Below, in pieces: positions 15,840 to 28,418 of a DNA stretch of 56,593 nucleotides. A model generated the notes under the pieces. It had not been told where the DNA came from. It did not search any database and saw only the letters and a list, made by a program, of their open reading frames with translations. Made by a program: the position numbers and the translations under genes. This stretch comes from Lachnospiraceae bacterium (GTDB taxonomy: Bacteria; Bacillota; Clostridia; Lachnospirales; Lachnospiraceae). The DNA lies in NCBI GenBank assembly GCA_017558205.1, contig JAFYWD010000169.1:1-56593 (forward strand). The letters run 5' to 3'. Position 1 is the stretch's first letter; the number at the start of each line of letters is the position of its first letter.

Positions 15840-16331
15840 TCAATTATATTTTTCATATTTTACAAAGGCATAGATGGTATCAAAATAGCTTTGTTCTTCT
15901 GAAGATGCAGTAATCTTCCAGCCTTCCTCTTTATCAAGATTAGGAAAATAGGCATCTGCCTCATAGCTTCTGTCTATCTTAGTAACATGGGCCGTAGTAC
16001 AGTAAGGGAGCATTTGGCGATAAATACTTTCTCCACCAATAATATAAATCTCTTCCTTCCTGTATTTTTTCAATTCCTCCAATAATTCTTCTACGGAATG
16101 AACTACAATGGCATCCTTCACCTGATAATCCTTCCTGGTAGAAAGAATAATATTAGTTCTGTTTTTCAAAGGCTGTCCCCCCGGAAAAGTTTCCAGTGTC
16201 TTTCTTCCCAAAACAACAACCTTTCCTGTAGTTTCCTCTCTGAACATCTTCATATCTGCCGGTATGCGGATTAATAATTCATTTTTATATCCGATAGCCC
16301 AGTTTTCATCTACTGCTACAATAAGATTCAT
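15840..16331 (-). CDS. folA: dihydrofolate reductase
   Basis: MNLIVAVDENWAIG...GRKT...IIGG motifs. Start placed at ATG 16331 behind AAGAGGAAAG. Lies downstream of thyA. Confidence 0.9.
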   Translation of the reverse strand: MNLIVAVDENWAIGYKNELLIRIPADMKMFREETTGKVVVLGRKTLETFPGGQPLKNRTNIILSTRKDYQVKDAIVVHSVEELLEELKKYRKEEIYIIGGESIYRQMLPYCTTAHVTKIDRSYEADAYFPNLDKEEGWKITASSEEQSYFDTIYAFVKYEKYN

Positions 16332-16372
16332 ATTCTTTCCTCTTTCTGCCTGCTGTCTCACTTTCCCTTGAT

Positions 16373-17221
16373 TTAAATTGCAATGGGAATCTCTTTAATC
16401 TGTTCTCCGGTAATATAATCCTCCACCGATACATCATGTCTTGTAAACCGGTAAAAGTCCTTAATTTCCGGATTCAAATGAAATTTAGGTGCCGGATAAG
16501 GAGTTCTGGTAATCAGCTCCTTGATAATGGGAACATGCTTATCATAAATATGAGCATCGGCTATCACATGTACCAGCTCTCCTACCTTCATATCACATAC
16601 CTGAGCCAGCATATGAAGAAGTACAGAGTATTGAACCACATTCCAGTTATTGGCTGCCAGTACATCCTGGGAACGCTGATTTAAAATGGCATTTAAAGTT
16701 AGCCTATCCTCTCCCTGTTTTTGGGTTACATTAAAGGTCATACTATAGGCACAAGGGTAAAGATTCATTTCATGAAGATCCTGATGTACGTAAATATTTG
16801 TCATAATTCTTCTGCTGAAGGGATTATTCTTTAAATCATAAATTACCCTGTCTACCTGATCCATCATTCCTTCTTTGTATTGGTGCTTTACTCCCAGCTG
16901 ATAACCATAAGCCTTACCGATAGATCCCTCTTCATCTGCCCATTCATCCCAGATATGACTGTGAAGCTCCTTAATATTATTGGATTTTTGCTGCCAAATC
17001 CACAGCATTTCATCAGTAGCAGATTTTAAAGCTGTTTTTCTGAGCGTTAATAAGGGAAATTCCCTGGATAAATCATAACGGTTCACCACCCCAAATTTTT
17101 TAATGGTATAGGCACTTGTTCCGTCAGGCCATTTGGGTCTTACCTTTTCTCCTCTGGTATCTGTACCGTTTTCTAAAATATCTTTACACATATCTATAAA
17201 GATCTGATCTGCCAAGCTCAT
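16373..17221 (-). CDS. thyA: thymidylate synthase (ThyA type)
   Basis: 282 aa with LYPCAYSMTFNV around the catalytic Cys, plus the RSQDV and DAHIY motifs. Confidence 0.95.
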   Translation of the reverse strand: MSLADQIFIDMCKDILENGTDTRGEKVRPKWPDGTSAYTIKKFGVVNRYDLSREFPLLTLRKTALKSATDEMLWIWQQKSNNIKELHSHIWDEWADEEGSIGKAYGYQLGVKHQYKEGMMDQVDRVIYDLKNNPFSRRIMTNIYVHQDLHEMNLYPCAYSMTFNVTQKQGEDRLTLNAILNQRSQDVLAANNWNVVQYSVLLHMLAQVCDMKVGELVHVIADAHIYDKHVPIIKELITRTPYPAPKFHLNPEIKDFYRFTRHDVSVEDYITGEQIKEIPIAI

Positions 17222-17283: not shown

Positions 17284-18888
17284 TTATCTCTCCCACTTAT
17301 CACAAAGAGAGTTAATCTGATCTGCAAATTTTGCAAGATCCTTATTGGCTCCACCTTCATTTCTTCTAATAACCACAAGCAAGCGCTGTCCTGCAGCAAG
17401 CAATCTGGCAAATACACCGGTAGAAGGTTTGGCTGTCGGTTTCTTTTCCAATGCATGAGGTACAGCCTCTTCAATGATTGTATTTTCAATCACATCAAAT
17501 CTTGTACCGCTGTAAGGTGCATAGGCGGCAATATTATATTCATTTATCAGGCAGTCTGTAAATGCCTGGCACACACTATCCTCACCATGAACAACAAAAA
17601 CCTTTTCCGGTTTCTTTTCAAAGCCCTGGATCCAACGCAATAAGCCGTTTTTATCGGCATGGCCACTCATACCTGTTAATTTTTTTATATCTGCTCTTAC
17701 TTCAATATGCTCTCCGAACAGCTTCACCTCATCAGCACCCTCTACCAGGGTTCTTCCTAAGGTTCCGATGGCCTGATATCCTACAAACAAAATAGTACAT
17801 TCAGGTCTCCAAAGATTATGCTTCAGATGATGTCTGATTCGTCCGGCCTCACACATACCTGAGGCAGAGATAATTACCTTGGGACTTTGATCAAAGTTAA
17901 TAGCCTTGGATTCATCACTGGTGATGGACAAGCGTAAGCCCGGAAATGCTATGGGATTAATTCCCTGTTTTACCAGACTCATGGCCTCTTCATCAAAACA
18001 GCTGTAGATATTATGATGGAAAATGCCGGTAGCCTCTACTGCCAGGGGACTGTCAACATATACCTCAAAGCCCTCATGTCCCTGTATCATTCTTGCCTGC
18101 TTAATCTGTCTTATAAAATATAACATTTCCTGGGTTCTGCCTACGGCAAAGGATGGAATTACCACATTCCCGCCTCTGTCAAAGGTCTGCTGGATAATAG
18201 CTGCCAGCTCTTTTACATAGTCCGGCTTTTCCTCACTGTGATAACGGTCACCATAGGTAGATTCCATTACCACATAATCAGCCTCTTTTGTAAGGGCCGG
18301 ATCCTTGATTAACGGCTGATCCGTATTTCCGATGTCTCCGGAAAATACAATTTTCTTAGTAATCTCACCCTCGGTAGCCCAGACTTCAATACTGGCAGAG
18401 CCCAGCAAATGACCGATATCGGTAAATCTGATCTTTACATTTTCACAGACCTCCACGATTTTTTCATAGGCAACAGGAACAATTCTTCGAATAATTCCAT
18501 CTGCATCCTCCATGGTGTAAAGTGGCTGGGTTACTTCCATCTTGGCACTTCTTTGAGCCTTCCTGTTTTTCCACTCAGCTTCCTGCATCTGGATATGTGC
18601 ACAGTCACGAAGCATAATGCTACATAAATCTGCACTTGCTTCCGTCATCCATACCTGCCCACGAAAGCCCTGGGCAAACAGAAGAGGAAGTAAGCCGGAA
18701 TGGTCAATATGGGCATGAGTCAAAAGCACATAATCAATTTGTGCAGGCTCTACCGGGAGTTCTGCATTTTCAAAATAATTTACTCCCTGTTCCATTCCGT
18801 AATCCACTAAAAGATGAGTATCTCCTACTCTTAGATAATGACAGCTTCCCGTCACCTCATGAGCAGCCCCAATAAACATTAGTTCCAT
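17284..18888 (-). CDS. MBL-fold metallo-hydrolase with beta-CASP / RNA-specificity domain (RNase J/CPSF-like)
   Basis: HAHIDHSG motif II, beta-CASP motifs and the C-terminal H of the MBL fold. GGAGG is upstream. Confidence 0.8.
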   Translation of the reverse strand: MELMFIGAAHEVTGSCHYLRVGDTHLLVDYGMEQGVNYFENAELPVEPAQIDYVLLTHAHIDHSGLLPLLFAQGFRGQVWMTEASADLCSIMLRDCAHIQMQEAEWKNRKAQRSAKMEVTQPLYTMEDADGIIRRIVPVAYEKIVEVCENVKIRFTDIGHLLGSASIEVWATEGEITKKIVFSGDIGNTDQPLIKDPALTKEADYVVMESTYGDRYHSEEKPDYVKELAAIIQQTFDRGGNVVIPSFAVGRTQEMLYFIRQIKQARMIQGHEGFEVYVDSPLAVEATGIFHHNIYSCFDEEAMSLVKQGINPIAFPGLRLSITSDESKAINFDQSPKVIISASGMCEAGRIRHHLKHNLWRPECTILFVGYQAIGTLGRTLVEGADEVKLFGEHIEVRADIKKLTGMSGHADKNGLLRWIQGFEKKPEKVFVVHGEDSVCQAFTDCLINEYNIAAYAPYSGTRFDVIENTIIEEAVPHALEKKPTAKPSTGVFARLLAAGQRLLVVIRRNEGGANKDLAKFADQINSLCDKWER

Positions 18889-18966: not shown

Positions 18967-20733
18967 CTATTTTAAAGAATTTGCTGTAATAAAAAACTGA
19001 TAATATACACCTTTTTTTTCTAATAGTGTGTAATGATTGCCTTCTTCTACAATTCCTTCCTCCGTTAGCACTAAAATTCTGTCAGAATTCTGAATACTGC
19101 TTAATCTGTGGGCTATGGTCAGAGTCGTTCTTCCCCTGGATAGTTCAGTCAAAGATTTTGCTACCTCAAATTCACTTTCATTATCAAGGGCTGATGTGGC
19201 TTCATCTAAAATGATAATAGGCGGATTCTTTAAAAATACTCTGGCAATACTGATTCTCTGCTTCTGTCCTCCGGAAAGCTTTACACCTCTCTCCCCTACA
19301 TAGGTATGATAGCCGTCCTTTAATTTTTCAATAAATTCATGGGCTCCTGCTGCCTTGGCAGCTGCCACCACCTCTTCCATGGCTGCTCCTTTTTTCCCAT
19401 AGGCAATGTTTTCATAGACCGTACCTGAAAAAAGATAGATTTCCTGCTGTACCATTCCAATATTTTTACGAAGACTTTTTAAGGTCAGACTTTTGATTTC
19501 CTTGCCATCTATATAGATATTCCCTTTGGTAACATCATAGAACCTGGGAATCAAATTACACAACGTTGTCTTTCCGCCGCCCGAGGGTCCAACAATGGCA
19601 ACCTTTTCTCCCGGTGAAATCTTAAGATTCAGATTTTGAAATACCCGGTTATGGTCATCCGGGTATTCGAATTCCACATTTTCAAAAAGGATTTCTCCCT
19701 GCGGCTTCTGAAGCTCCACAGCTCCCGGCTCATCAAAGATTTCAATATCCGCATCCATAATTTCCAGGAAGCGCTCAATTCCTGTCATTCCTCTCTGAAA
19801 CTGCTCAAAAAATTCAATAATTCTTCGGATAGTAGCAATCAGGGTAGTGACATATAAAATATACGCTACCAAATCTCCCGGAAGAATCCAGCCCCGGATC
19901 ATAAAAATCCCACCTGCTACCAGCACCGTTAAATACATTAAGCCGTCAAAAATTTTAACACTTGTCTGGAAGCGTGCCATATAACGATAGGCTTCCTTCT
20001 TAATCTCTAAAAACTTACCATTGTCCTTTTCAAATTTATCCTTTTCTACTTCTTCATTGGCAAAGGCTTTTACTACCTTATGCCCTAAAAGACTGTCCTC
20101 TATTCTGGCATTCAGCTCCCCAACCTGTCCTCTTTGCTGACGAAAGACCTTCTTCATTTTCTGATTCAGCTTAATACATACCAGCAGCATCACGGGAACG
20201 ATCACAAAAATTAAAACAGTAAGAGGTAAATGTACCCTCATTAAAATCAGAAAGGATGCCAGAATCTTTATTCCGGCAATAAAAAATTCCTCCGGGCAAT
20301 GATGGGCAAACTCCGTAACATCAAACAGGTCATTGGTAATTCGACCCATGATCTGTCCTACCTTAGTATTATTATAATAGGTATCTGACAGCTTCTGCAG
20401 ATGGGAATAGGCATCTCTTCTCATATCTGTCTCAATAAAGGCTCCCATCACGTGTCCCATATTAGCCATATAATATCCGGCTATACAGTCGATAACCCTT
20501 AACACCAGATACAGCATTCCCAGACCGACAATGGTATTTAAAGACAGGGCTGCTAAATTTGAAATTCCTTCATTCGTAATGTAACGCATAATTAAAGGCA
20601 GAACCAGCTCACACAGTGTAGTCAGTGCCGCACAAAAAAGATCCAAAAATAAAATCTTTTTATAAGGTTTAAAATAGGGAAAAAACCTTTTCATCAGTTC
20701 CTTTGTTTCATAATTTTTTTCTACTTTTATCAT
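18967..20733 (-). CDS. ABC transporter ATP-binding/permease fusion (MsbA/MdlB-type exporter half-transporter)
   Basis: Six-TM domain followed by Walker A GPSGGGKTT, signature LSGGQKQR and Walker B IIILDEATS. Start placed at ATG 20733 (MIKVEKNY) behind AGGAGG. Confidence 0.9.
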   Translation of the reverse strand: MIKVEKNYETKELMKRFFPYFKPYKKILFLDLFCAALTTLCELVLPLIMRYITNEGISNLAALSLNTIVGLGMLYLVLRVIDCIAGYYMANMGHVMGAFIETDMRRDAYSHLQKLSDTYYNNTKVGQIMGRITNDLFDVTEFAHHCPEEFFIAGIKILASFLILMRVHLPLTVLIFVIVPVMLLVCIKLNQKMKKVFRQQRGQVGELNARIEDSLLGHKVVKAFANEEVEKDKFEKDNGKFLEIKKEAYRYMARFQTSVKIFDGLMYLTVLVAGGIFMIRGWILPGDLVAYILYVTTLIATIRRIIEFFEQFQRGMTGIERFLEIMDADIEIFDEPGAVELQKPQGEILFENVEFEYPDDHNRVFQNLNLKISPGEKVAIVGPSGGGKTTLCNLIPRFYDVTKGNIYIDGKEIKSLTLKSLRKNIGMVQQEIYLFSGTVYENIAYGKKGAAMEEVVAAAKAAGAHEFIEKLKDGYHTYVGERGVKLSGGQKQRISIARVFLKNPPIIILDEATSALDNESEFEVAKSLTELSRGRTTLTIAHRLSSIQNSDRILVLTEEGIVEEGNHYTLLEKKGVYYQFFITANSLK

Positions 20734-20905
20734 TTTGCCTCCTTTTCTATGTATTTCTATCTTAGCAAGATTTAAAAAAAATTCAAGTTTCATAAAATTT
20801 TTATTCTTTTCCTTAAAAGATATGATATACTTATAAAAGTTGTGATTTGGTATCACACAAGAAGATAATATCATCTTAAATACTGTGTAATAGGAGAATT
20901 TAAAC

Positions 20906-22084
20906 ATGAGTGAAAACACAATGAGTAAAAGCAAGGCAAAACGTAAAGCCAGGCTGGAGGAAAGCAAAAAAGCAAAGCGTGAAGCAAAAAGAGGTACTTT
21001 TATCGCAAATTTTGTCATTATTTTAATTGTAGCAATATTTGCTGTTGCTGTCGGAGCACTTATTTATACTAAGGTAACCACTACTACCGCCAGCAGTGAT
21101 TACGGTGCCTTTTTGAATGAAGACGGTACTCTCCGTGATGTGAATCCTACGGATTACGTAGAAGCATTAGATTACAAAAATATTGTAGTACCTGCAGCTG
21201 AGGTAGAATACACAGAGGAGGAAATGCAGGCTGCCATCGATTCTGCTCTCTCTTCCCATAAAGAATTAAACAGCGATGCTGCTTTAACCGTTGCTGATGG
21301 TGATACCGTAAACATTGATTATGTAGGAACTGTTGACGGTGTGGAATTCGAAGGCGGAAATACCGGCGGAAGTGGTGCCGATCTTACCATAGGGTCCGGC
21401 TCCTATGTAGATACCTTTGAACAACAGTTAATCGGAAGTCATCCCGGTGATCAGGTATTGGTTACAGTTACCTTCCCTGAGGATTACTCTTCCGAAGATT
21501 TACAGGGAAAAGAAGCCGAGTTTGATGTTACTGTTAACGGAATCTATGAGACCCCGGAATTTAGTGATGAATTTGTAGCTACCAACCTTTCTGACAAGGC
21601 TGCTACCATGGAAGAATACCGCAACTATTTAAAAGAAACTAATGAAGCTACCAAGCTGGATACCTATCTTTCCACTTATATTAGCGACAATGCCACATCA
21701 AAGGCTGCCAATGAAGGACATATTAAATATCTGAAGGGAATTGGCAAATATGATCAGGAAACCTACTACAACTCTTATAACGAAACTTATGTTATGATGA
21801 CAGGTTCTCCTGCCTTTAACAGCTTCTCTGAGTTTACCGGAATGAGCAATTCTGAGTTCGAGGCTTATTTACAGGAAGAAGCTGAAAAACGCTCTACTCT
21901 TGATATGACTTATCAGTATATCTTTACTGATGCCGGTCTGTCCATTTCTGAGGAGGATTATCAGGCAAAGGTGGAATCTATTGGTTCTGAATCTGCCCAG
22001 ACCTACGGAAAGGGTTATGTAATGCAGATGTTAATGCAGGATAAGGTTCTTGCTTATCTTGCAGAAAATGTAACTGTTGAATAA
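20906..22084 (+). CDS. membrane-anchored trigger-factor-like FKBP-type peptidyl-prolyl isomerase
   Basis: Lys-rich N-terminus plus one TM helix. The FKBP/trigger-factor PPIase core follows (GDTVNIDYVGTVDGVEFEGG...FPEDY...LQGKEAEFDVTV), then a trigger-factor C-domain-like region. Confidence 0.7.
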   Translation: MSENTMSKSKAKRKARLEESKKAKREAKRGTFIANFVIILIVAIFAVAVGALIYTKVTTTTASSDYGAFLNEDGTLRDVNPTDYVEALDYKNIVVPAAEVEYTEEEMQAAIDSALSSHKELNSDAALTVADGDTVNIDYVGTVDGVEFEGGNTGGSGADLTIGSGSYVDTFEQQLIGSHPGDQVLVTVTFPEDYSSEDLQGKEAEFDVTVNGIYETPEFSDEFVATNLSDKAATMEEYRNYLKETNEATKLDTYLSTYISDNATSKAANEGHIKYLKGIGKYDQETYYNSYNETYVMMTGSPAFNSFSEFTGMSNSEFEAYLQEEAEKRSTLDMTYQYIFTDAGLSISEEDYQAKVESIGSESAQTYGKGYVMQMLMQDKVLAYLAENVTVE

Positions 22085-22105: not shown

Positions 22106-22138
22106 TAAAAAAACTGCCCTTTATGGGCAGTTTTTTTT
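22106..22138. terminator. bidirectional terminator (PPIase gene / RsmF-like gene)
   Basis: CTGCCC-tttat-GGGCAG flanked by A8 and T8. Confidence 0.75.
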
Positions 22139-23510
22139 ATCCTTTTCTTAATCCTTTCGGATAATGATTCTTTATCATTCCTCCCGCAAGCTTTCCCCAG
22201 CCTATACTATAGCCTTCAACCAGCATCAGATACCAGCCTTTCTCTCCTTCACAGGAAAGAGTATTGCCTGACAAATATTGGAAAATCTCCTGTTCTTCCA
22301 CCTTCATATTGTATGTATGGGTTACCTGTTCCTTGCCTAATGAAAGAGCCAGGGCATGTGAGGGTTCGAAACGATTCTTTTTCAGACTTCCCAAATGAAG
22401 TCCCGGCCTTAGAACCTTAAGCCCTTTTAAATCAGGACATTCCTCCGGCAATAAATATAATTGTTCTCCAAAGGTAATCACTCGATCCGGAAGAGAAAAG
22501 GTCAGATGCTTTTTCACAAATTCTTCCAAATCCTTAAACTCCTTAATCTTTTTCACCGGTTCCCCTGTTCCTTTTAGTTTTCCTTCTTCTATCTCTTTTT
22601 GTTCACCGGCTTTTTTATAGAGAGCAATAAAATGTCCTTCACCTTTTAGCTTGTGAGGCCAAAGTCTTATTGTTTTACTGATTTCCTGATTTTTTTCCTC
22701 GGTCCATAAATAATTTCCCCGGCTCATTCCCTCTTTCATTTCCGGCTCAAGTAATGAAAACTCCGGATATTTTTTCAAAAAACGCTCTACACAGCCTTCA
22801 TTTTCCTGTGGGGCAAAGGTGCAGGTTGAATAACACAGTATTCCTCCGGGACGAAGCATTTTTACCACATCCTCTAAAATTTCATCCTGCCTCTTGGCAC
22901 ACATTTCTACATTACTAAGACTCCACTCCTCTAATGCTTCCTCATTTTTTCGAAACATACCTTCTCCCGAGCAGGGAGCATCTACTAAAATTTTATCAAA
23001 AAACCGGGGAAAATGCTTTGCCAGCTTACCCGGTGTTTCATTGGTAACAATAGCATTTCTTATTCCCATTCGTTCTATATTTTCAGAAAGTATCTTGGCT
23101 CTTGCCGGATGAATCTCATTACATACCAACAGTCCCTCTCCTTTCATGGCAGCTGCCAGGGCAGTACTTTTCCCGCCCGGTGCCCCGCATAAGTCCAGTA
23201 CTCTATCCTTAGGACCGGAGCCCAGATATTCTGCTACCGCCATGGCACTGGGTTCCTGAATATAGTACAAACCGGCTGCATGATAGGGATGCCTTCCCGG
23301 CTGGTTTTCTTTTCCATAATAATAGCCGGTGGCACACCAGGGAATTGGCTCCAAATCAAAGGGCAGCTGTTTTAAAAACTCTTCCTCTGAAATCTTTAAG
23401 CTGTTTCTTCTTAAGCCATGATACCTGGGCTTTTCATAGCTTTGCATAAATTCTTCATATTCTGACGGAAGCATCTCCTTCATTCGCTGTTCAAATTCTA
23501 TGGGCAGCAT
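22137..23510 (-). CDS. NOL1/NOP2/Sun-family rRNA m5C methyltransferase (RsmF/YebU-like)
   Basis: DLCGAPGGKS SAM motif and DAPCSGEG / STCT catalytic Cys motifs, with a C-terminal PUA-like extension. Its RBS (AGGAGG) overlaps the stop codon of the upstream gene. Confidence 0.85.
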   Translation of the reverse strand: MLPIEFEQRMKEMLPSEYEEFMQSYEKPRYHGLRRNSLKISEEEFLKQLPFDLEPIPWCATGYYYGKENQPGRHPYHAAGLYYIQEPSAMAVAEYLGSGPKDRVLDLCGAPGGKSTALAAAMKGEGLLVCNEIHPARAKILSENIERMGIRNAIVTNETPGKLAKHFPRFFDKILVDAPCSGEGMFRKNEEALEEWSLSNVEMCAKRQDEILEDVVKMLRPGGILCYSTCTFAPQENEGCVERFLKKYPEFSLLEPEMKEGMSRGNYLWTEEKNQEISKTIRLWPHKLKGEGHFIALYKKAGEQKEIEEGKLKGTGEPVKKIKEFKDLEEFVKKHLTFSLPDRVITFGEQLYLLPEECPDLKGLKVLRPGLHLGSLKKNRFEPSHALALSLGKEQVTHTYNMKVEEQEIFQYLSGNTLSCEGEKGWYLMLVEGYSIGWGKLAGGMIKNHYPKGLRKG

Positions 23511-23520
23511 AGCCTTCCTC

Positions 23521-26205
23521 CTATTGCGATTCCTTATTTTCTAAAATATCCTGAAAAATAATTTCCTTTAAATATAGTTTACTATTTTCTTTTTTCTCCA
23601 TGTAGCTTTCACGAAATTCTGTTTTTTTTCTGCTGATTTCTTCCTTTAAATCACCGGCAGATAACAGATAACACCCCTGTCCTCTGATAATAATCTGCTC
23701 CAGACCATCTGAGGTAGCTACTGTGATTCGATACTCTTTTGCATGCCTGGCAGCAAATTTTTCAATATATTGATCGGCAGTTTCTGCTTCTTTGGTAAAA
23801 ACAATTTTAATATTATGCTCCTCCAGCACCTCAACTCTATGTCCCTGAAGTCGGTAGGCATCATATACTACCATGAGCTGTATTCCCTTCATGGCTGCAT
23901 AATCAGATAAAATTTCCTGTAGTTTTCCTCTGGCAGCATCTAAATTCACCTCTGCTAATTCCTTTAATTCTTCCCAGGCAAAAATAATATTATAGCCATC
24001 TACCAAAAGATATTCCTCCTTGGCAGACTGTCCTTTGTAGATTCTTTCTCCCGAAGGAATAATTTCAGATTTTTTGCTGTACTTCCAGCCAACTGCTTTA
24101 TTTCCTTCTTTTTTTCTATTGGAATAAAAGGTTCTTTCTAAAATAGCATCTATTTCCTCAGTACCAAGTACTATTTCCTGTTCTGACCTTTGAGAAACTT
24201 TTATTTCTCTGCTTGCTTCCTCTTTTGACTGTTCCTTATAGGCATAAGGAAGATGCATCCGTTCTTCCACCTGATCCCACTCCACATACACACCGGCTCC
24301 ATGACTGCAAAAAATACTGCCACAGGGATTCTGCTGATCCCTCTCCGGAGAATAGCCTGCCATCTCCAATACCACTGTTTCATTATGACAGTAGTCATAG
24401 CCTCCGGGCAAACATTCCAGCTTTCCCTGACCTTTGGTATATGCCATAACCTCCTTTTGATATTCCTGCATTGTCACTACCGGACATTTTCCCTTTAGAA
24501 GGGAAACCTCTTCCTCTCCTATGGAGTTTAATTGTTCCAGTCTATATTCCGCGCACATCCTTTGCAGATCAGACATAGCCCTTCCTACCATGGTATTAGG
24601 AATCTCCAGAGAAAATTCATAGACCGGCTCCAACAATCTGCTGTTTGCTTTTCTCAAGCCCTGACGTATTGCCCGATAGGTAGCCTGCCTGAAGTCTCCT
24701 CCTTCTGTGTGCTTATTATGTGCCTTGCCCGATAGCAAGGTGATTTTTATATCTGTAATAGGTGCTCCCGTTAATACTCCTCTATGTTCCTTCTCTGCTA
24801 TATGACTTAGGATTAATCTTTGCCAGTTTCGATCCAAAAGATCCTCACTGCAGTCTGTATCAATCTGTATTCCACTTCCCTCAGGTAAAGGCTCCAGTAA
24901 AACATGAACCTCTGCATAATGACGAAGGGGTTCAAAATGACCGATGCCTTCCACCGTATTCTCTATGGTTTCCTTATACAGAATTTCTCCACTGGTAAAT
25001 TCAATGGGTACTCCCAGTTTTGTCTCCGCCAATTCTTTCAGAACCTGCAACTGAATTTCTCCCATGACCTTACAACGGATAAACTCTTCTTCTTCCATCC
25101 TGGTAATCTGTAAATTAGGCTCCTCCTCTTCCAATTGCTTTAGCTTCTCGTAAGCTACAAAAAGATTCGTATTTTCCGGCAACAAAATAGAATAGGTTAA
25201 TACCGGCTCTAAAACTCCGTGGCTATTCTCAGTTTCCTTTCCCAAGGCCTGTCCTGCATATGTTTTTTCCAGCCCCATCACTGCCACAATTTCTCCCGGA
25301 TAGGCTGTATTTACATTTTCATAAGATATCCCATTATAAAAGCGCAGTTGGTCTGCCTTCTCCGGTGGAAAGAGGACACCTCCCCTGTCTCTTCCTTCAA
25401 TCATCTGCTTTACTGAAAGACTTCCTCCGGTAATTTTCATATAAGTTATTCTCTGTCCCTGAGTATCTCTTCCTATTTTATATACCTTAGCTGCAAATTC
25501 CTTTCCATAGGTCTTTCTTTCCAGGTAAGTATCCAGTCCCTCCAATAGTTCCTGCACTCCAAAATCTTTTAATGCTGAACCAAAATAGCAGGGAAAAACC
25601 TTTCTATTTCTTATCAATCTTTGAATATCATGAATTTGTGGATTCTGTCCCTCCAAATATGTTTCCAGTAGCTGTTCCTCGCCTAATGCCAGCTCCTCAA
25701 AAAACTCTACTCCTTTTTCAGAAAAATTCACACAGCCGTCACTTAATTTTTCCTTTAATTCCTTTAAGATACTCTGTTCACTTCTTTTATTTTGATCCAT
25801 TTTATTTACAAACACAAAAACAGGAATTCCATTCCTCTCTAATAACTTCCAGAGAGTTTTTGTATGACTTTGTACTCCATCTGTACCACTGATTACCAAA
25901 ATAGCATAATCCATTACCTGAAGTGTTCTTTCTGCCTCAGAACCAAAATCCGCATGGCCCGGTGTATCTAACAAAGTAAACTTAAAATTTTCCACAGAAA
26001 AAATAGCCTGTTTAGAAAAGATTGTTATCCCTCTTTCTCTTTCCAGGCTATGAGTATCTAAAAAAGTATCCCTGTGATCTACTCTTCCTGCTTTACTAAT
26101 AGCCCCTGTCTTAAACAAAAGCTGTTCAGAAAGAGTAGTTTTACCGGCATCCACATGAGCCAAAATGCCTATAACCAAATTATTTTTTAATGCCTCCTCA
26201 GGCAT
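23521..26205 (-). CDS. translational GTPase (EF-G/TetM ribosomal-protection-like) fused to a C-terminal YacP/Rae1-type NYN ribonuclease domain
   Basis: Single open frame. G1 AHVDAGKTT, RGITI, G3 DTPGH and G4 NKMD, followed by domains II-V colinear with Tet(M). The C-terminal ~140 aa (LLVDGYNIIFAW...VVYDAY...IVFTKEAETADQYIEKF...VATSDGLEQ) match YacP. Start placed at ATG 26205 behind AAGGAG. Confidence 0.85.
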   Translation of the reverse strand: MPEEALKNNLVIGILAHVDAGKTTLSEQLLFKTGAISKAGRVDHRDTFLDTHSLERERGITIFSKQAIFSVENFKFTLLDTPGHADFGSEAERTLQVMDYAILVISGTDGVQSHTKTLWKLLERNGIPVFVFVNKMDQNKRSEQSILKELKEKLSDGCVNFSEKGVEFFEELALGEEQLLETYLEGQNPQIHDIQRLIRNRKVFPCYFGSALKDFGVQELLEGLDTYLERKTYGKEFAAKVYKIGRDTQGQRITYMKITGGSLSVKQMIEGRDRGGVLFPPEKADQLRFYNGISYENVNTAYPGEIVAVMGLEKTYAGQALGKETENSHGVLEPVLTYSILLPENTNLFVAYEKLKQLEEEEPNLQITRMEEEEFIRCKVMGEIQLQVLKELAETKLGVPIEFTSGEILYKETIENTVEGIGHFEPLRHYAEVHVLLEPLPEGSGIQIDTDCSEDLLDRNWQRLILSHIAEKEHRGVLTGAPITDIKITLLSGKAHNKHTEGGDFRQATYRAIRQGLRKANSRLLEPVYEFSLEIPNTMVGRAMSDLQRMCAEYRLEQLNSIGEEEVSLLKGKCPVVTMQEYQKEVMAYTKGQGKLECLPGGYDYCHNETVVLEMAGYSPERDQQNPCGSIFCSHGAGVYVEWDQVEERMHLPYAYKEQSKEEASREIKVSQRSEQEIVLGTEEIDAILERTFYSNRKKEGNKAVGWKYSKKSEIIPSGERIYKGQSAKEEYLLVDGYNIIFAWEELKELAEVNLDAARGKLQEILSDYAAMKGIQLMVVYDAYRLQGHRVEVLEEHNIKIVFTKEAETADQYIEKFAARHAKEYRITVATSDGLEQIIIRGQGCYLLSAGDLKEEISRKKTEFRESYMEKKENSKLYLKEIIFQDILENKESQ

Positions 26206-26247
26206 ATTAATTGCTCCTTTCTCTGTTACAAAATTCTCCCCATCCAA

Positions 26248-27477
26248 TTAATTCTCTGATTTTACAGATATCCTAAAAAATATGAGTCCTAAAACAAAAA
26301 ATACTGCAATTGCCCCTACACCTTTGTTAATATCTCCCGTAAGCTGGGAAACACTACTTACTACTGCCGTTCCGATAAAAGCAGCACCTTTTCCACAAAT
26401 ATCCATCAAACCAAAATATTCTCCTGCCCGTTCTGCGGGAATGATTTTAGTAAAATAGGAACGTGATAAGGCCTGAATTCCTCCCTGAAACATTCCTACT
26501 AAAACTGCCAGAGTAAAAAATTGTACTTGATTTTTCAAAAAATAAGCAAATACGGCAATTCCAAAATAAGCAATAATACAAATGGTAATCAAAACTTCTG
26601 CCCTGTATTTTTTTGCCAATCTTCCAAAAAGGATAGCAAAAGGGAAGGCTACAATCTGGGTTACCAGTAAAGCAACCAGAAGTCCCGTAGTATCAAGTCC
26701 CAAGGCAGAACCATAGGCAGTTGCCATATCAATAATCGTATAAACACCATCAATATAAAAGAAAAATGCTAATAGGAAGATAAAAATCTTCTTCTCCTGC
26801 TTCACATTCCGAAAGGTATTTCCTAAACGTTTAAAGCTTTCTGCAATTACATGAGGCTTTTTTTCCACATAATATTTCTGCTGGTAACGCCTTAATAAGG
26901 GAATGCTTAATAACACCCACCAAAGAGCCGTAATTAAAAAGGATAACATCATGGCAGTTCCCATAGAAATCCCAATACTGCTTCCTCCCAGCACAAGCAC
27001 CAGACAAATTAAAAACGGAATACAGCTGCCGATATAACCGAGAGCATAGCCTAAAGAAGAAACCTGATCCATTTTTTCTTCCGTGGTAATATCGGTCAGC
27101 ATAGCATCATAAAAAATCAGAGAACTGGAATAACCAACCTTTGCAATTACAAAAATGATTAAGAAAATCATCCATTGTTTGGCCAATCCCAGAGAAACAC
27201 AGCCTATTGCCCCTATCAGTAGAGCGGCCACAAAAATAGGTTTCTTTAAGCCCTTAGTATCAGCGATAGAGCCACAAACAGGACCCAGTAATGCTACAAT
27301 TAAGGTTGTAATGGAAGCTGCATATCCCCAATAGGCCAGATATTGTACTTCGGTTAATCCTCCACTTTCAGCCAGATAATTAAAATAAATAGGCATGATA
27401 GTTGCAATCAAAAGGGTAAAAGCAGAATTCCCCACATCATATAGTATCCAGCTTTTTTCTTCTTTAGAAAACTTCAT
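26248..27477 (-). CDS. MFS transporter (UMF1/ATG22-like family)
   Basis: 409 aa and about 12 TM helices, with an N-terminal WILYDVGNSAF motif typical of this MFS subfamily. Confidence 0.75.
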   Translation of the reverse strand: MKFSKEEKSWILYDVGNSAFTLLIATIMPIYFNYLAESGGLTEVQYLAYWGYAASITTLIVALLGPVCGSIADTKGLKKPIFVAALLIGAIGCVSLGLAKQWMIFLIIFVIAKVGYSSSLIFYDAMLTDITTEEKMDQVSSLGYALGYIGSCIPFLICLVLVLGGSSIGISMGTAMMLSFLITALWWVLLSIPLLRRYQQKYYVEKKPHVIAESFKRLGNTFRNVKQEKKIFIFLLAFFFYIDGVYTIIDMATAYGSALGLDTTGLLVALLVTQIVAFPFAILFGRLAKKYRAEVLITICIIAYFGIAVFAYFLKNQVQFFTLAVLVGMFQGGIQALSRSYFTKIIPAERAGEYFGLMDICGKGAAFIGTAVVSSVSQLTGDINKGVGAIAVFFVLGLIFFRISVKSEN

Positions 27478-28380: not shown

Positions 28381-28418
28381 AAAAGAAAGGGGACATGATT
28401 ACATGCCCCTTCCTTTTT
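28381..28418. terminator. terminator hairpin after the MCP gene
   Basis: GAAAGGGGaCATG-atta-CATGCCCCTTCC stem with T-rich flanks on both strands. Confidence 0.6.

Follow-up and report, generated by a model that had tools for sequence, protein, structure and literature searches.

A Tet-like translational GTPase joined to a Rae1-type NYN nuclease in Lachnospiraceae and other Clostridia

What would a bacterium do with a translational GTPase that carries an endoribonuclease at its C-terminus? The question is raised by a single gene at positions 23521-26205, on the minus strand, of contig JAFYWD010000169.1 (Lachnospiraceae bacterium, GenBank assembly GCA_017558205.1), whose entire 56,593 nucleotides are referred to here as the window. 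An earlier description made from the DNA alone, the sequence-only reading, placed an EF-G/TetM-like GTPase and a YacP/Rae1-type NYN domain on one polypeptide, knew of no characterised protein of such architecture, and suggested that the GTPase delivers a Rae1-type RNase to particular ribosomes. The first statement is borne out by Pfam searches, which find the domains from GTP_EFTU to EFG_C, and NYN_YacP, on this one chain. The second holds in part: no such protein has been characterised, but the architecture itself was reported in 2015 and 2017. Atkinson (2015) noted that the Tet proteins of ten Clostridiales species had gained a YacP-like NYN RNase domain, and proposed for them a resistance mechanism with RNase activity (PMC4342817). 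Matelska et al. (2017) reported TetM-NYN_YacP fusions from some Clostridia, whose role they considered unclear (PMC5499597). The architecture is already catalogued in these two surveys and has never been studied experimentally; full-text literature searches found no experimental study of any member of the family. The fusion goes unmentioned in two papers on Rae1 (PMC12407103, PMC13622287), and since a 2026 survey of Rae1 employed a hidden Markov model search without a length filter, fusions would have been counted there as Rae1. The third suggestion, delivery of the nuclease to particular ribosomes, is retained as the best reading, which we infer to have about an even chance of being correct.

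Architecture and occurrence of the fusion

The gene lies in an unbroken minus-strand open reading frame (ORF; 23521-26247) that encodes 908 residues from a TTG codon and 894 residues from the ATG at 26205. This second codon, which follows an AAAGGAG motif with an 8-nt spacer and gives an N-terminus in agreement with those of homologues, is the likely start. The single uninterrupted 894-codon frame is thus confirmed, with its strand corrected to minus, and the beginning of the NYN domain moves from about residue 745, as first placed, to residue 732; the former number fits the 908-residue TTG frame, which is offset by about 14 residues. The features of the gene are as follows.

23521-26205, minus: GTPase-NYN fusion coding sequence, complete, 894 aa plus stop, probable ATG at 26205
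26214-26220, minus: AAAGGAG, Shine-Dalgarno-like, 8 nt upstream of the ATG, read directly from the sequence
25519-26184, minus: G domain, residues 8-229 (Pfam GTP_EFTU, 1.7e-54)
25243-25497, minus: domain II, residues 237-321 (Pfam EF-G_D2; fold match to EF-G)
24997-25209, minus: domain III, residues 333-403 (weak Pfam EFG_III match; fold supported)
24643-24987, minus: domain IV, residues 407-521 (Pfam EFG_IV, 3.6e-20)
24904-24948, minus: domain IV loop I, residues 420-434, with the family-specific motif G-I/V-GHFEPLRHYAEVH
24688-24729, minus: domain IV loop III, residues 493-506, GKAHNKHTEGGDFR in place of Tet(M) GLYYSPVSTPADFR
24379-24639, minus: domain V, residues 523-609 (Pfam EFG_C, 1.3e-14)
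24250-24402, minus: C-terminal module following domain V (post-V module), residues ~602-652, GYxxCHN...NPxGSxFCSHGAG..V.W..V...MH
24013-24249, minus: disordered linker, residues 653-731 (alignment and predicted disorder)
24118-24168, minus: conserved short helix within the linker, residues ~680-696, I/LGTEEIDAIL.RT..AN
23536-24012, minus: YacP/Rae1-type NYN endoribonuclease domain, residues 732-890 (Pfam NYN_YacP, fold, catalytic Asp)

The GTPase and NYN motifs quoted in the sequence-only reading are all present in the protein (AHVDAGKTT, RGITI, DTPGH, NKMD, LLVDGYN, VVYDAY, ETADQYIEKF and VATSDGLEQ). The G motifs comprise the P-loop AHVDAGKTT, RGIT in switch I, DTPGH with the catalytic His84, and NKMD, and in an alignment of 77 sequences of the fusion family, whose overall identity is about 46-56%, the residues D19, K22, T23, T61, D80, H84, N134, K135 and D137 are invariant. 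Domains II-V are present in the order and fold of EF-G, as judged from Pfam and from an AlphaFold2 (AF2) model of the full-length protein (predicted local distance difference test, pLDDT, 74; predicted template modelling score, pTM, 0.55), and structures of EF-G and Tet(M) match this model with E values of 6e-51 to 5e-43. As far as sequence can tell, the GTPase is complete and catalytically competent.

The evidence for the nuclease is of the same kind. Residues 732-890 align with Bacillus subtilis Rae1/YacP (the PDB sequence) at E 3e-22 and about 40% identity, and Pfam NYN_YacP matches residues 733-890 over profile positions 1-160 of 166 (6.4e-47), with 160.1 bits against a gathering score of 24.6. 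A Foldseek search with the C-terminal model returned the Rae1 crystal structures 5mq8 and 5mq9 as the sole matches at E≤0.001 (E 1e-11, target TM 0.66-0.75). The Rae1 residues D7, D53, D81 and D104 correspond to D736, D782, D811 and D833 of the fusion, and all four are invariant (77/77); the D7N/D81N substitutions define the published catalytic-dead Rae1 (PMC10351889). The profile score and the acidic residues had been proposed as checks on the nuclease assignment, and both point to a catalytically intact NYN domain. The likeness to B. subtilis Rae1 therefore extends to the NYN fold, the profile and the four active-site aspartates, but the setting differs: Rae1 is a free protein of ~170 residues, typically encoded beside rlmB, whereas the NYN domain of the fusion forms the C-terminus of an 894-residue GTPase, attached by a long tether. 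The canonical rlmB-yacP(-sigH) neighbourhood was seen in Listeria and Bacillus records; neither rlmB nor sigH was found near the fusion gene among its neighbours in the window. Stand-alone NYN_YacP genes were also encountered on Clostridioides difficile records of 96-114 kb that are labelled plasmids and that may be true plasmids, phage-plasmids or mislabelled stretches of chromosome.

The linker between the two enzymes is always present, with a length of ~80 residues here and of 68-111 residues in homologues. It is predicted to be disordered, and its column identity is 0.21-0.23 outside the conserved short helix, in which E684 is kept in 76 and I688 in 75 of the 77 sequences and which lacks confident docking in the AF2 model. 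The linker is slightly acidic at its beginning, and in 97% of sequences the final 35 residues have a positive net charge. By alignment, profile and model, two intact enzymes and a flexible tether are shown to occupy one chain, and both catalytic centres are kept in at least 77 species.

This architecture is widespread. A 91-kb ENA metagenome scaffold and a Logan contig that was assembled separately both encode the identical 894-residue protein. A search of 5.8 billion proteins yielded more than 120 full-length homologues of the same Pfam architecture (54-69% identity, 873-939 aa), the closest of which, other than identical copies, is 69% identical. Residues 601-894 matched 3048 representatives of 50%-identity clusters at E≤1e-3 (389 at E≤1e-30), and 83 of the 150 best representatives are at least 800 aa long, with the match at their C-terminus. 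How far the fusion had spread was a question that the sequence-only reading had posed; alignment of the C-terminal part against one genome per species gave confirmed matches in at least 596 species genomes. The best 80 loci among these, to which all counts of loci given here refer, come in the main from Lachnospiraceae, and also from Clostridium punense, Desulfitobacterium, Desulfosporosinus, Acetivibrio ethanolgignens, Enterocloster, Hungatella and Blautia. Of these loci, 78, each from another species, are not truncated by the end of a contig, and all of them encode GTPase and NYN domain together in a single ORF of 844-990 aa. Longer variants (998-1156 aa) retain the architecture and have insertions and no additional domains.

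It had been recognised from the outset that the finding of two separate genes in relatives would expose the fusion as a frameshift or an assembly artefact. Split two-gene versions were not found among the cluster representatives, in which short NYN proteins resemble fragments beginning inside the linker. An artefactual merger is ruled out because independent assemblies contain the identical ORF and because the fusion is uninterrupted at 78 of 78 complete loci; the length of the best cluster representatives likewise speaks against it, and the probability that we assign to it is negligible.

Two variants deserve mention. Protein P0249 (244 aa) carries a fused-type NYN domain (LLVDGYNIIYAW, TKEAETADQYIEK) behind a different, Cys/His-containing N-terminal region of ~75 residues without a Pfam match, which suggests that this type of NYN domain may also be present in other architectures. 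The Agathobacter rectalis fusion (NZ_CP143948, L082:3723-6524) has a low-complexity insertion of ~25 residues, SRDTNAADTADTAHTADVACTADTA, that follows switch I of the G domain (alignment A3 columns 72-96).

A GTPase subfamily with and without the nuclease

The sequence-only reading held the GTPase to be colinear with Tet(M)/Tet(O), and for the five-domain fold this stands. It fails for loop III and the C-terminal helix, both of which are replaced, and the protein belongs to a separate subfamily. The body scores 260 bits to Tet(M) versus 207 bits to EF-G, and with 256.7 bits for the EF-G equivalog TIGR00484, whose cutoff is 659.4, it is not EF-G proper. Nor does it reach the Tet models, with 425.7 bits for the NCBIfam equivalog tet_protect (cutoff 775) and 251.9 bits for the Tet(M)-specific model (cutoff 1420), and its scores with all specific Tet models are far short of their cutoffs. 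When the fusion is aligned with Tet(M), loop I becomes GHFEPLRHYAEVH and loop III changes from GLYYSPVSTPADFR to GKAHNKHTEGGDFR, and the C-terminal extension helix of the Tet type (…SRIDKVRYMFNKIT) is exchanged for a module of ~50 residues with the pattern CHN...FCSHGAG...W..V...MH. In Tet proteins the domain IV loops, in the loop III region, serve to displace tetracycline (PMC4342817).

The most conserved segments of the fusion are the G3 motif, the two domain IV loops and the NYN active site, and the segments that hold loops I and III reach a column identity of 0.91-0.94, on par with the G3 motif. Domain IV of EF-G and Tet(M) extends to the decoding centre, and conservation of this strength in all three places is what would be expected if contact with the decoding centre and cleavage were both functional. 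The module that follows domain V is modelled as a helix, a β-hairpin and a helix, confidently so only in the full-length context with domain V; in an AF2 model of the C-terminal 297 residues alone it is unfolded and the linker helix is undocked. Its sequence gave chance-level matches only when compared with the PDB. A zinc site in this module was considered and set aside as speculation: C606 and C633 are kept in 76 of 77 sequences, but H607 and H635 in only 68-71, and C628 is not conserved.

Relatives that lack the nuclease exist in the Lactobacillaceae. A tblastn search of plasmid records revealed a protein of 639 aa on Ligilactobacillus salivarius megaplasmids (NZ_CP020859, L081:3855-5774) that shares 45% identity along the full length of the GTPase, scores 378 bits with tet_protect (cutoff 775), and is flanked by insertion sequence (IS) elements. 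Chromosomal relatives of ~640-660 aa occur in Companilactobacillus, Levilactobacillus, Paucilactobacillus, Pediococcus and Loigolactobacillus, under the inconsistent labels of EF-G, GTP-binding protein or TetM family. These proteins have loop I GHFEPLRHYAEVH and the post-V module in common with the fusion, but stop 10-15 residues past that module, without linker or NYN domain, and no NYN gene adjoins their genes in the Lactobacillaceae loci examined. The tip of loop III separates the two groups. It reads A-H-x-K-H-T-E-G-G in all 74 matched genome sequences of the fused type, with the H, K and E positions kept in 119-120 of 120 fused homologues, and A-S-x-V-H-S/T-V-G-G in all 95 matched sequences of the NYN-less type. 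Judged by these scores and motifs, the GTPase of the fusion is a member of a distinct, uncharacterised EF-G/Tet-like subfamily, and, since an NYN-less sister clade exists, the nuclease is best described as an addition onto that subfamily. An entire subfamily of translational GTPases, fused and NYN-less, is thereby brought to light. In Levilactobacillus (CP168707.1, L083:8236-9309) a gene for an RsgA-family GTPase, a factor of 30S biogenesis, follows the NYN-less GTPase gene on the same strand; this adjacency may hint at a link to ribosome assembly or be a coincidence.

The subfamily's nearness to Tet proteins bears on the suggestion of Atkinson (2015) that the fusion protects the ribosome against tetracycline or another decoding-centre drug, in which case the nuclease would be an accessory. 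Tet(M) and Tet(O) are indeed its best sequence relatives of known function, the hypothesis is in print (PMC4342817), the Prokaryotic Genome Annotation Pipeline labels some members TetM/W/O/S family, the A. rectalis copy among them, and the NYN-less relative of L. salivarius sits between IS elements on a megaplasmid. We nonetheless consider antibiotic protection quite improbable. The score of 426 bits lies well below the curated tet_protect cutoff of 775, and the loop III of Tet(M) (YYSPVS) and its C-terminal helix are replaced. The nearest relative is 69% identical, a divergence as under vertical descent, in contrast to the mobile tet genes, of which Tet(M) is found at ≥99% identity in 594 plasmid records. 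The contexts consist of chromosomal housekeeping genes without mobile elements, and the G+C content resembles that of the surroundings. From Tet(M)/Tet(O), with which it shares the five-domain fold, the fusion is thus set apart by sub-cutoff scores, the exchanged loop and helix, the lack of a mobile context and the added nuclease. As a tetracycline resistance protein proper it was rejected on Tet score, loop III, C-terminal helix and mobile context alike. In practice, members often bear the label of a TetM/TetW/TetO/TetS resistance protein or of EF-G, and such labelling can inflate counts of the resistome in gut metagenomes.

Genomic context

The neighbourhood of the gene in the window comprises the following features.

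22137-23510, minus: RsmF-type 16S rRNA m5C methyltransferase gene, downstream of the fusion gene, 10-nt gap
26248-27477, minus: ATG22/MFS-type transporter gene, upstream; its stop codon precedes the fusion ATG by 42 nt; not conserved
22107-22137, no strand assigned: terminator-like hairpin, bidirectional, following rsmF, where the transcription unit probably ends

Together with a gene for a Zn-phospholipase-C-like protein, the transporter, fusion and RsmF genes form an apparent unit of four, bounded by terminator-like hairpins at 22107-22137 and 28390-28409, and rsmF is probably co-transcribed with the fusion gene in this genome. A general functional link between the two was rejected, an RsmF gene being found near the fusion by tblastn at only 1 of 80 loci. 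Clustering of the three neighbours on either side at the 80 loci revealed no conserved operon partner; the recurring neighbours are generic (GGDEF, ABC, MATE and TPR proteins), occupy mixed positions and occur at no more than 15 loci. The helix-turn-helix neighbours reported by Matelska et al. did not appear in this clustering. The G+C content of the gene agrees with its surroundings, PADLOC found no family at E≤0.001 for the protein, Rfam had no match in the window, and neither the window nor the flanks of the 80 loci contain a second NYN copy. For these reasons the fusion gene looks self-contained, chromosomal and vertically inherited.

Several further genes were noted. An RNase J-like gene (β-CASP/RMMBL metallo-β-lactamase RNase; 17284-18888, minus) lies ~5 kb downstream of the fusion gene and is adjoined by a thyA-folA pair (16373-17221 and 15840-16361, minus); no link of these genes to the fusion is evident. 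An ABC transporter ORF (18967-21018, minus) and an ORF for a membrane-anchored FKBP-type isomerase (20906-22084, plus) are divergent and share ~110 nt at their 5' ends, and the listed start of one of them is probably set too far upstream. In A. rectalis (NZ_CP143948) a BrnT/CopG toxin-antitoxin pair lies just upstream of the fusion gene.

Two other functions can be weighed against this context. The GTPase might dock on immature, damaged or idle ribosomes while the NYN domain cuts rRNA, in maturation or decay, or tRNA, which would make the fusion a one-polypeptide analogue of the GTPase-checked rRNA cleavage carried out by eIF5B and Nob1 in eukaryotes. NYN_YacP was first tied by gene neighbourhood to the rRNA and tRNA processing genes mrnC and rlmB (PMC5499597), and the rlmB-NYN adjacency is visible in database records; the placement of the fusion gene 10 nt upstream of rsmF in this window and of an RsgA-family gene after the NYN-less relative in Levilactobacillus fits such a role, and the linker could bind to rRNA through its basic end. 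The adjacency to rsmF is confined, however, to 1 of 80 loci, no ribosome-biogenesis neighbour is conserved, and the experimentally defined substrates of Rae1 are mRNAs only. We regard a ribosomal or tRNA target as unlikely.

Alternatively, the fusion could be a GTPase-gated RNase that, upon a trigger, shuts off translation as a toxin or as an anti-phage effector of abortive infection. Nuclease-NTPase fusions are common among defence systems, and the A. rectalis copy has the BrnT/CopG pair, itself unrelated, beside it. This proposal is nevertheless highly improbable in our estimation, as it is opposed by the lack of a PADLOC match, of a conserved antitoxin or partner and of a defence-island context, and by a distribution over Clostridia that looks core-like.

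A possible role at stalled ribosomes

Any proposal for the nuclease must begin from what is established for free Rae1. The sequence-only reading had assumed that Rae1 cleaves mRNA in the ribosomal A site. That premise is outdated: A-site cleavage was the first proposal and has since been revised (PMC12407103; Deves et al.), the cut being placed at the tail, or mRNA exit side, of the stalled ribosome and 12 nt upstream of the A-site codon (PMC12407103). Cleavage depends on translation, takes place at stalled or collided ribosomes and feeds tmRNA (PMC12407103, PMC13622287); Tetreault et al. (2026) found that Rae1 makes tmRNA substrates on collided ribosomes (PMC13622287). A 2025 paper on Rae1 refers to structural work in progress, and no ribosome-bound structure of Rae1 was found in the PDB.

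The reading that we favour, at roughly even odds in our judgement, is that the fusion is a ribosome-associated, GTP-dependent endoribonuclease: its GTPase docks on a ribosome that has stalled or collided, and its tethered nuclease then cuts the mRNA for rescue. The GTPase body would bind the factor site of the ribosome (the GTPase-associated centre and the sarcin-ricin loop) in the manner of EF-G and Tet(M), an expectation drawn from established knowledge of those two proteins. The tip of domain IV would sense the state of the decoding centre, such that only stalled or collided ribosomes, which cannot be translocated, retain the factor. The tether would concentrate the nuclease locally, and mRNA would be cut near the bound ribosome. 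A coil of ~80 residues spans, by our estimate, roughly 60-70 Å on average, a distance that should bring the mRNA entry side of the bound ribosome within easy reach and the exit side hardly so; the likeliest cut would be on the entry side, or in the mRNA between the bound ribosome and a stalled leading one, which is the position of free Rae1. The truncated mRNA would then pass to tmRNA or other rescue systems, and the factor would be released upon GTP hydrolysis. We propose that sensor and Rae1 function are united in this way in one polypeptide.

A more specific version, which is rather unlikely as it stands, takes the fusion for a single-polypeptide collision sensor and nuclease that binds the trailing ribosome of a disome, which is rotated, tRNA-loaded and a natural substrate of EF-G, and cuts between the two ribosomes. 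The stalled leading ribosome would block translocation and the factor would dwell on the trailing one, for a time set by GTP hydrolysis that would license the Rae1 domain, and the product would be a tmRNA substrate. This version is the most attractive because the trailing ribosome turns its entry side towards the stalled ribosome's tail, the place at which free Rae1 cuts. If it is true, Rosetta-stone logic predicts that free Rae1 and the NYN-less Lactobacillaceae GTPases act together on collided ribosomes, at the side where factors bind.

Several observations weigh against a rescue nuclease of this kind. Literature searches turned up no experimental evidence on any family member, and B. subtilis Rae1 functions without such a GTPase. 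The exit-side cut of Rae1 is far from the factor-binding site of the same ribosome; for the model to hold, the cut would have to fall elsewhere or the fusion would have to act across a disome. The existence of an NYN-less sister clade shows the GTPase to have a role for which no nuclease is required, the AF2 model (pTM 0.55) defines no placement for the NYN domain or the linker helix, and the RNA substrate, be it mRNA, rRNA or tRNA, is not readable from the sequence. A natural fusion of Rae1 to an EF-G-type factor offers a testable hypothesis for where and when Rae1 acts and how it recognises stalled or collided ribosomes. The physiological reach of the fusion could be large, as it occurs in at least about 600 species, among them the dominant human-gut genera Agathobacter, Roseburia, Blautia, Enterocloster and Mediterraneibacter.

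We know of no other case in which an EF-G-type factor itself bears a nuclease. Sensors of ribosome problems that are coupled to RNA cleavage include MutS2 of B. subtilis, an ATPase with an SMR domain, SmrB of Escherichia coli, and in yeast Hbs1/Dom34 with Cue2 and Ski7 with the exosome. These systems follow the same logic as is proposed here for the fusion, in that an NTPase or ribosome-binding module is joined to RNA cleavage that starts rescue, but they are built from unrelated families, with SMR in place of NYN nucleases and with a MutS ATPase or an eEF1A-like GTPase in place of one resembling EF-G.

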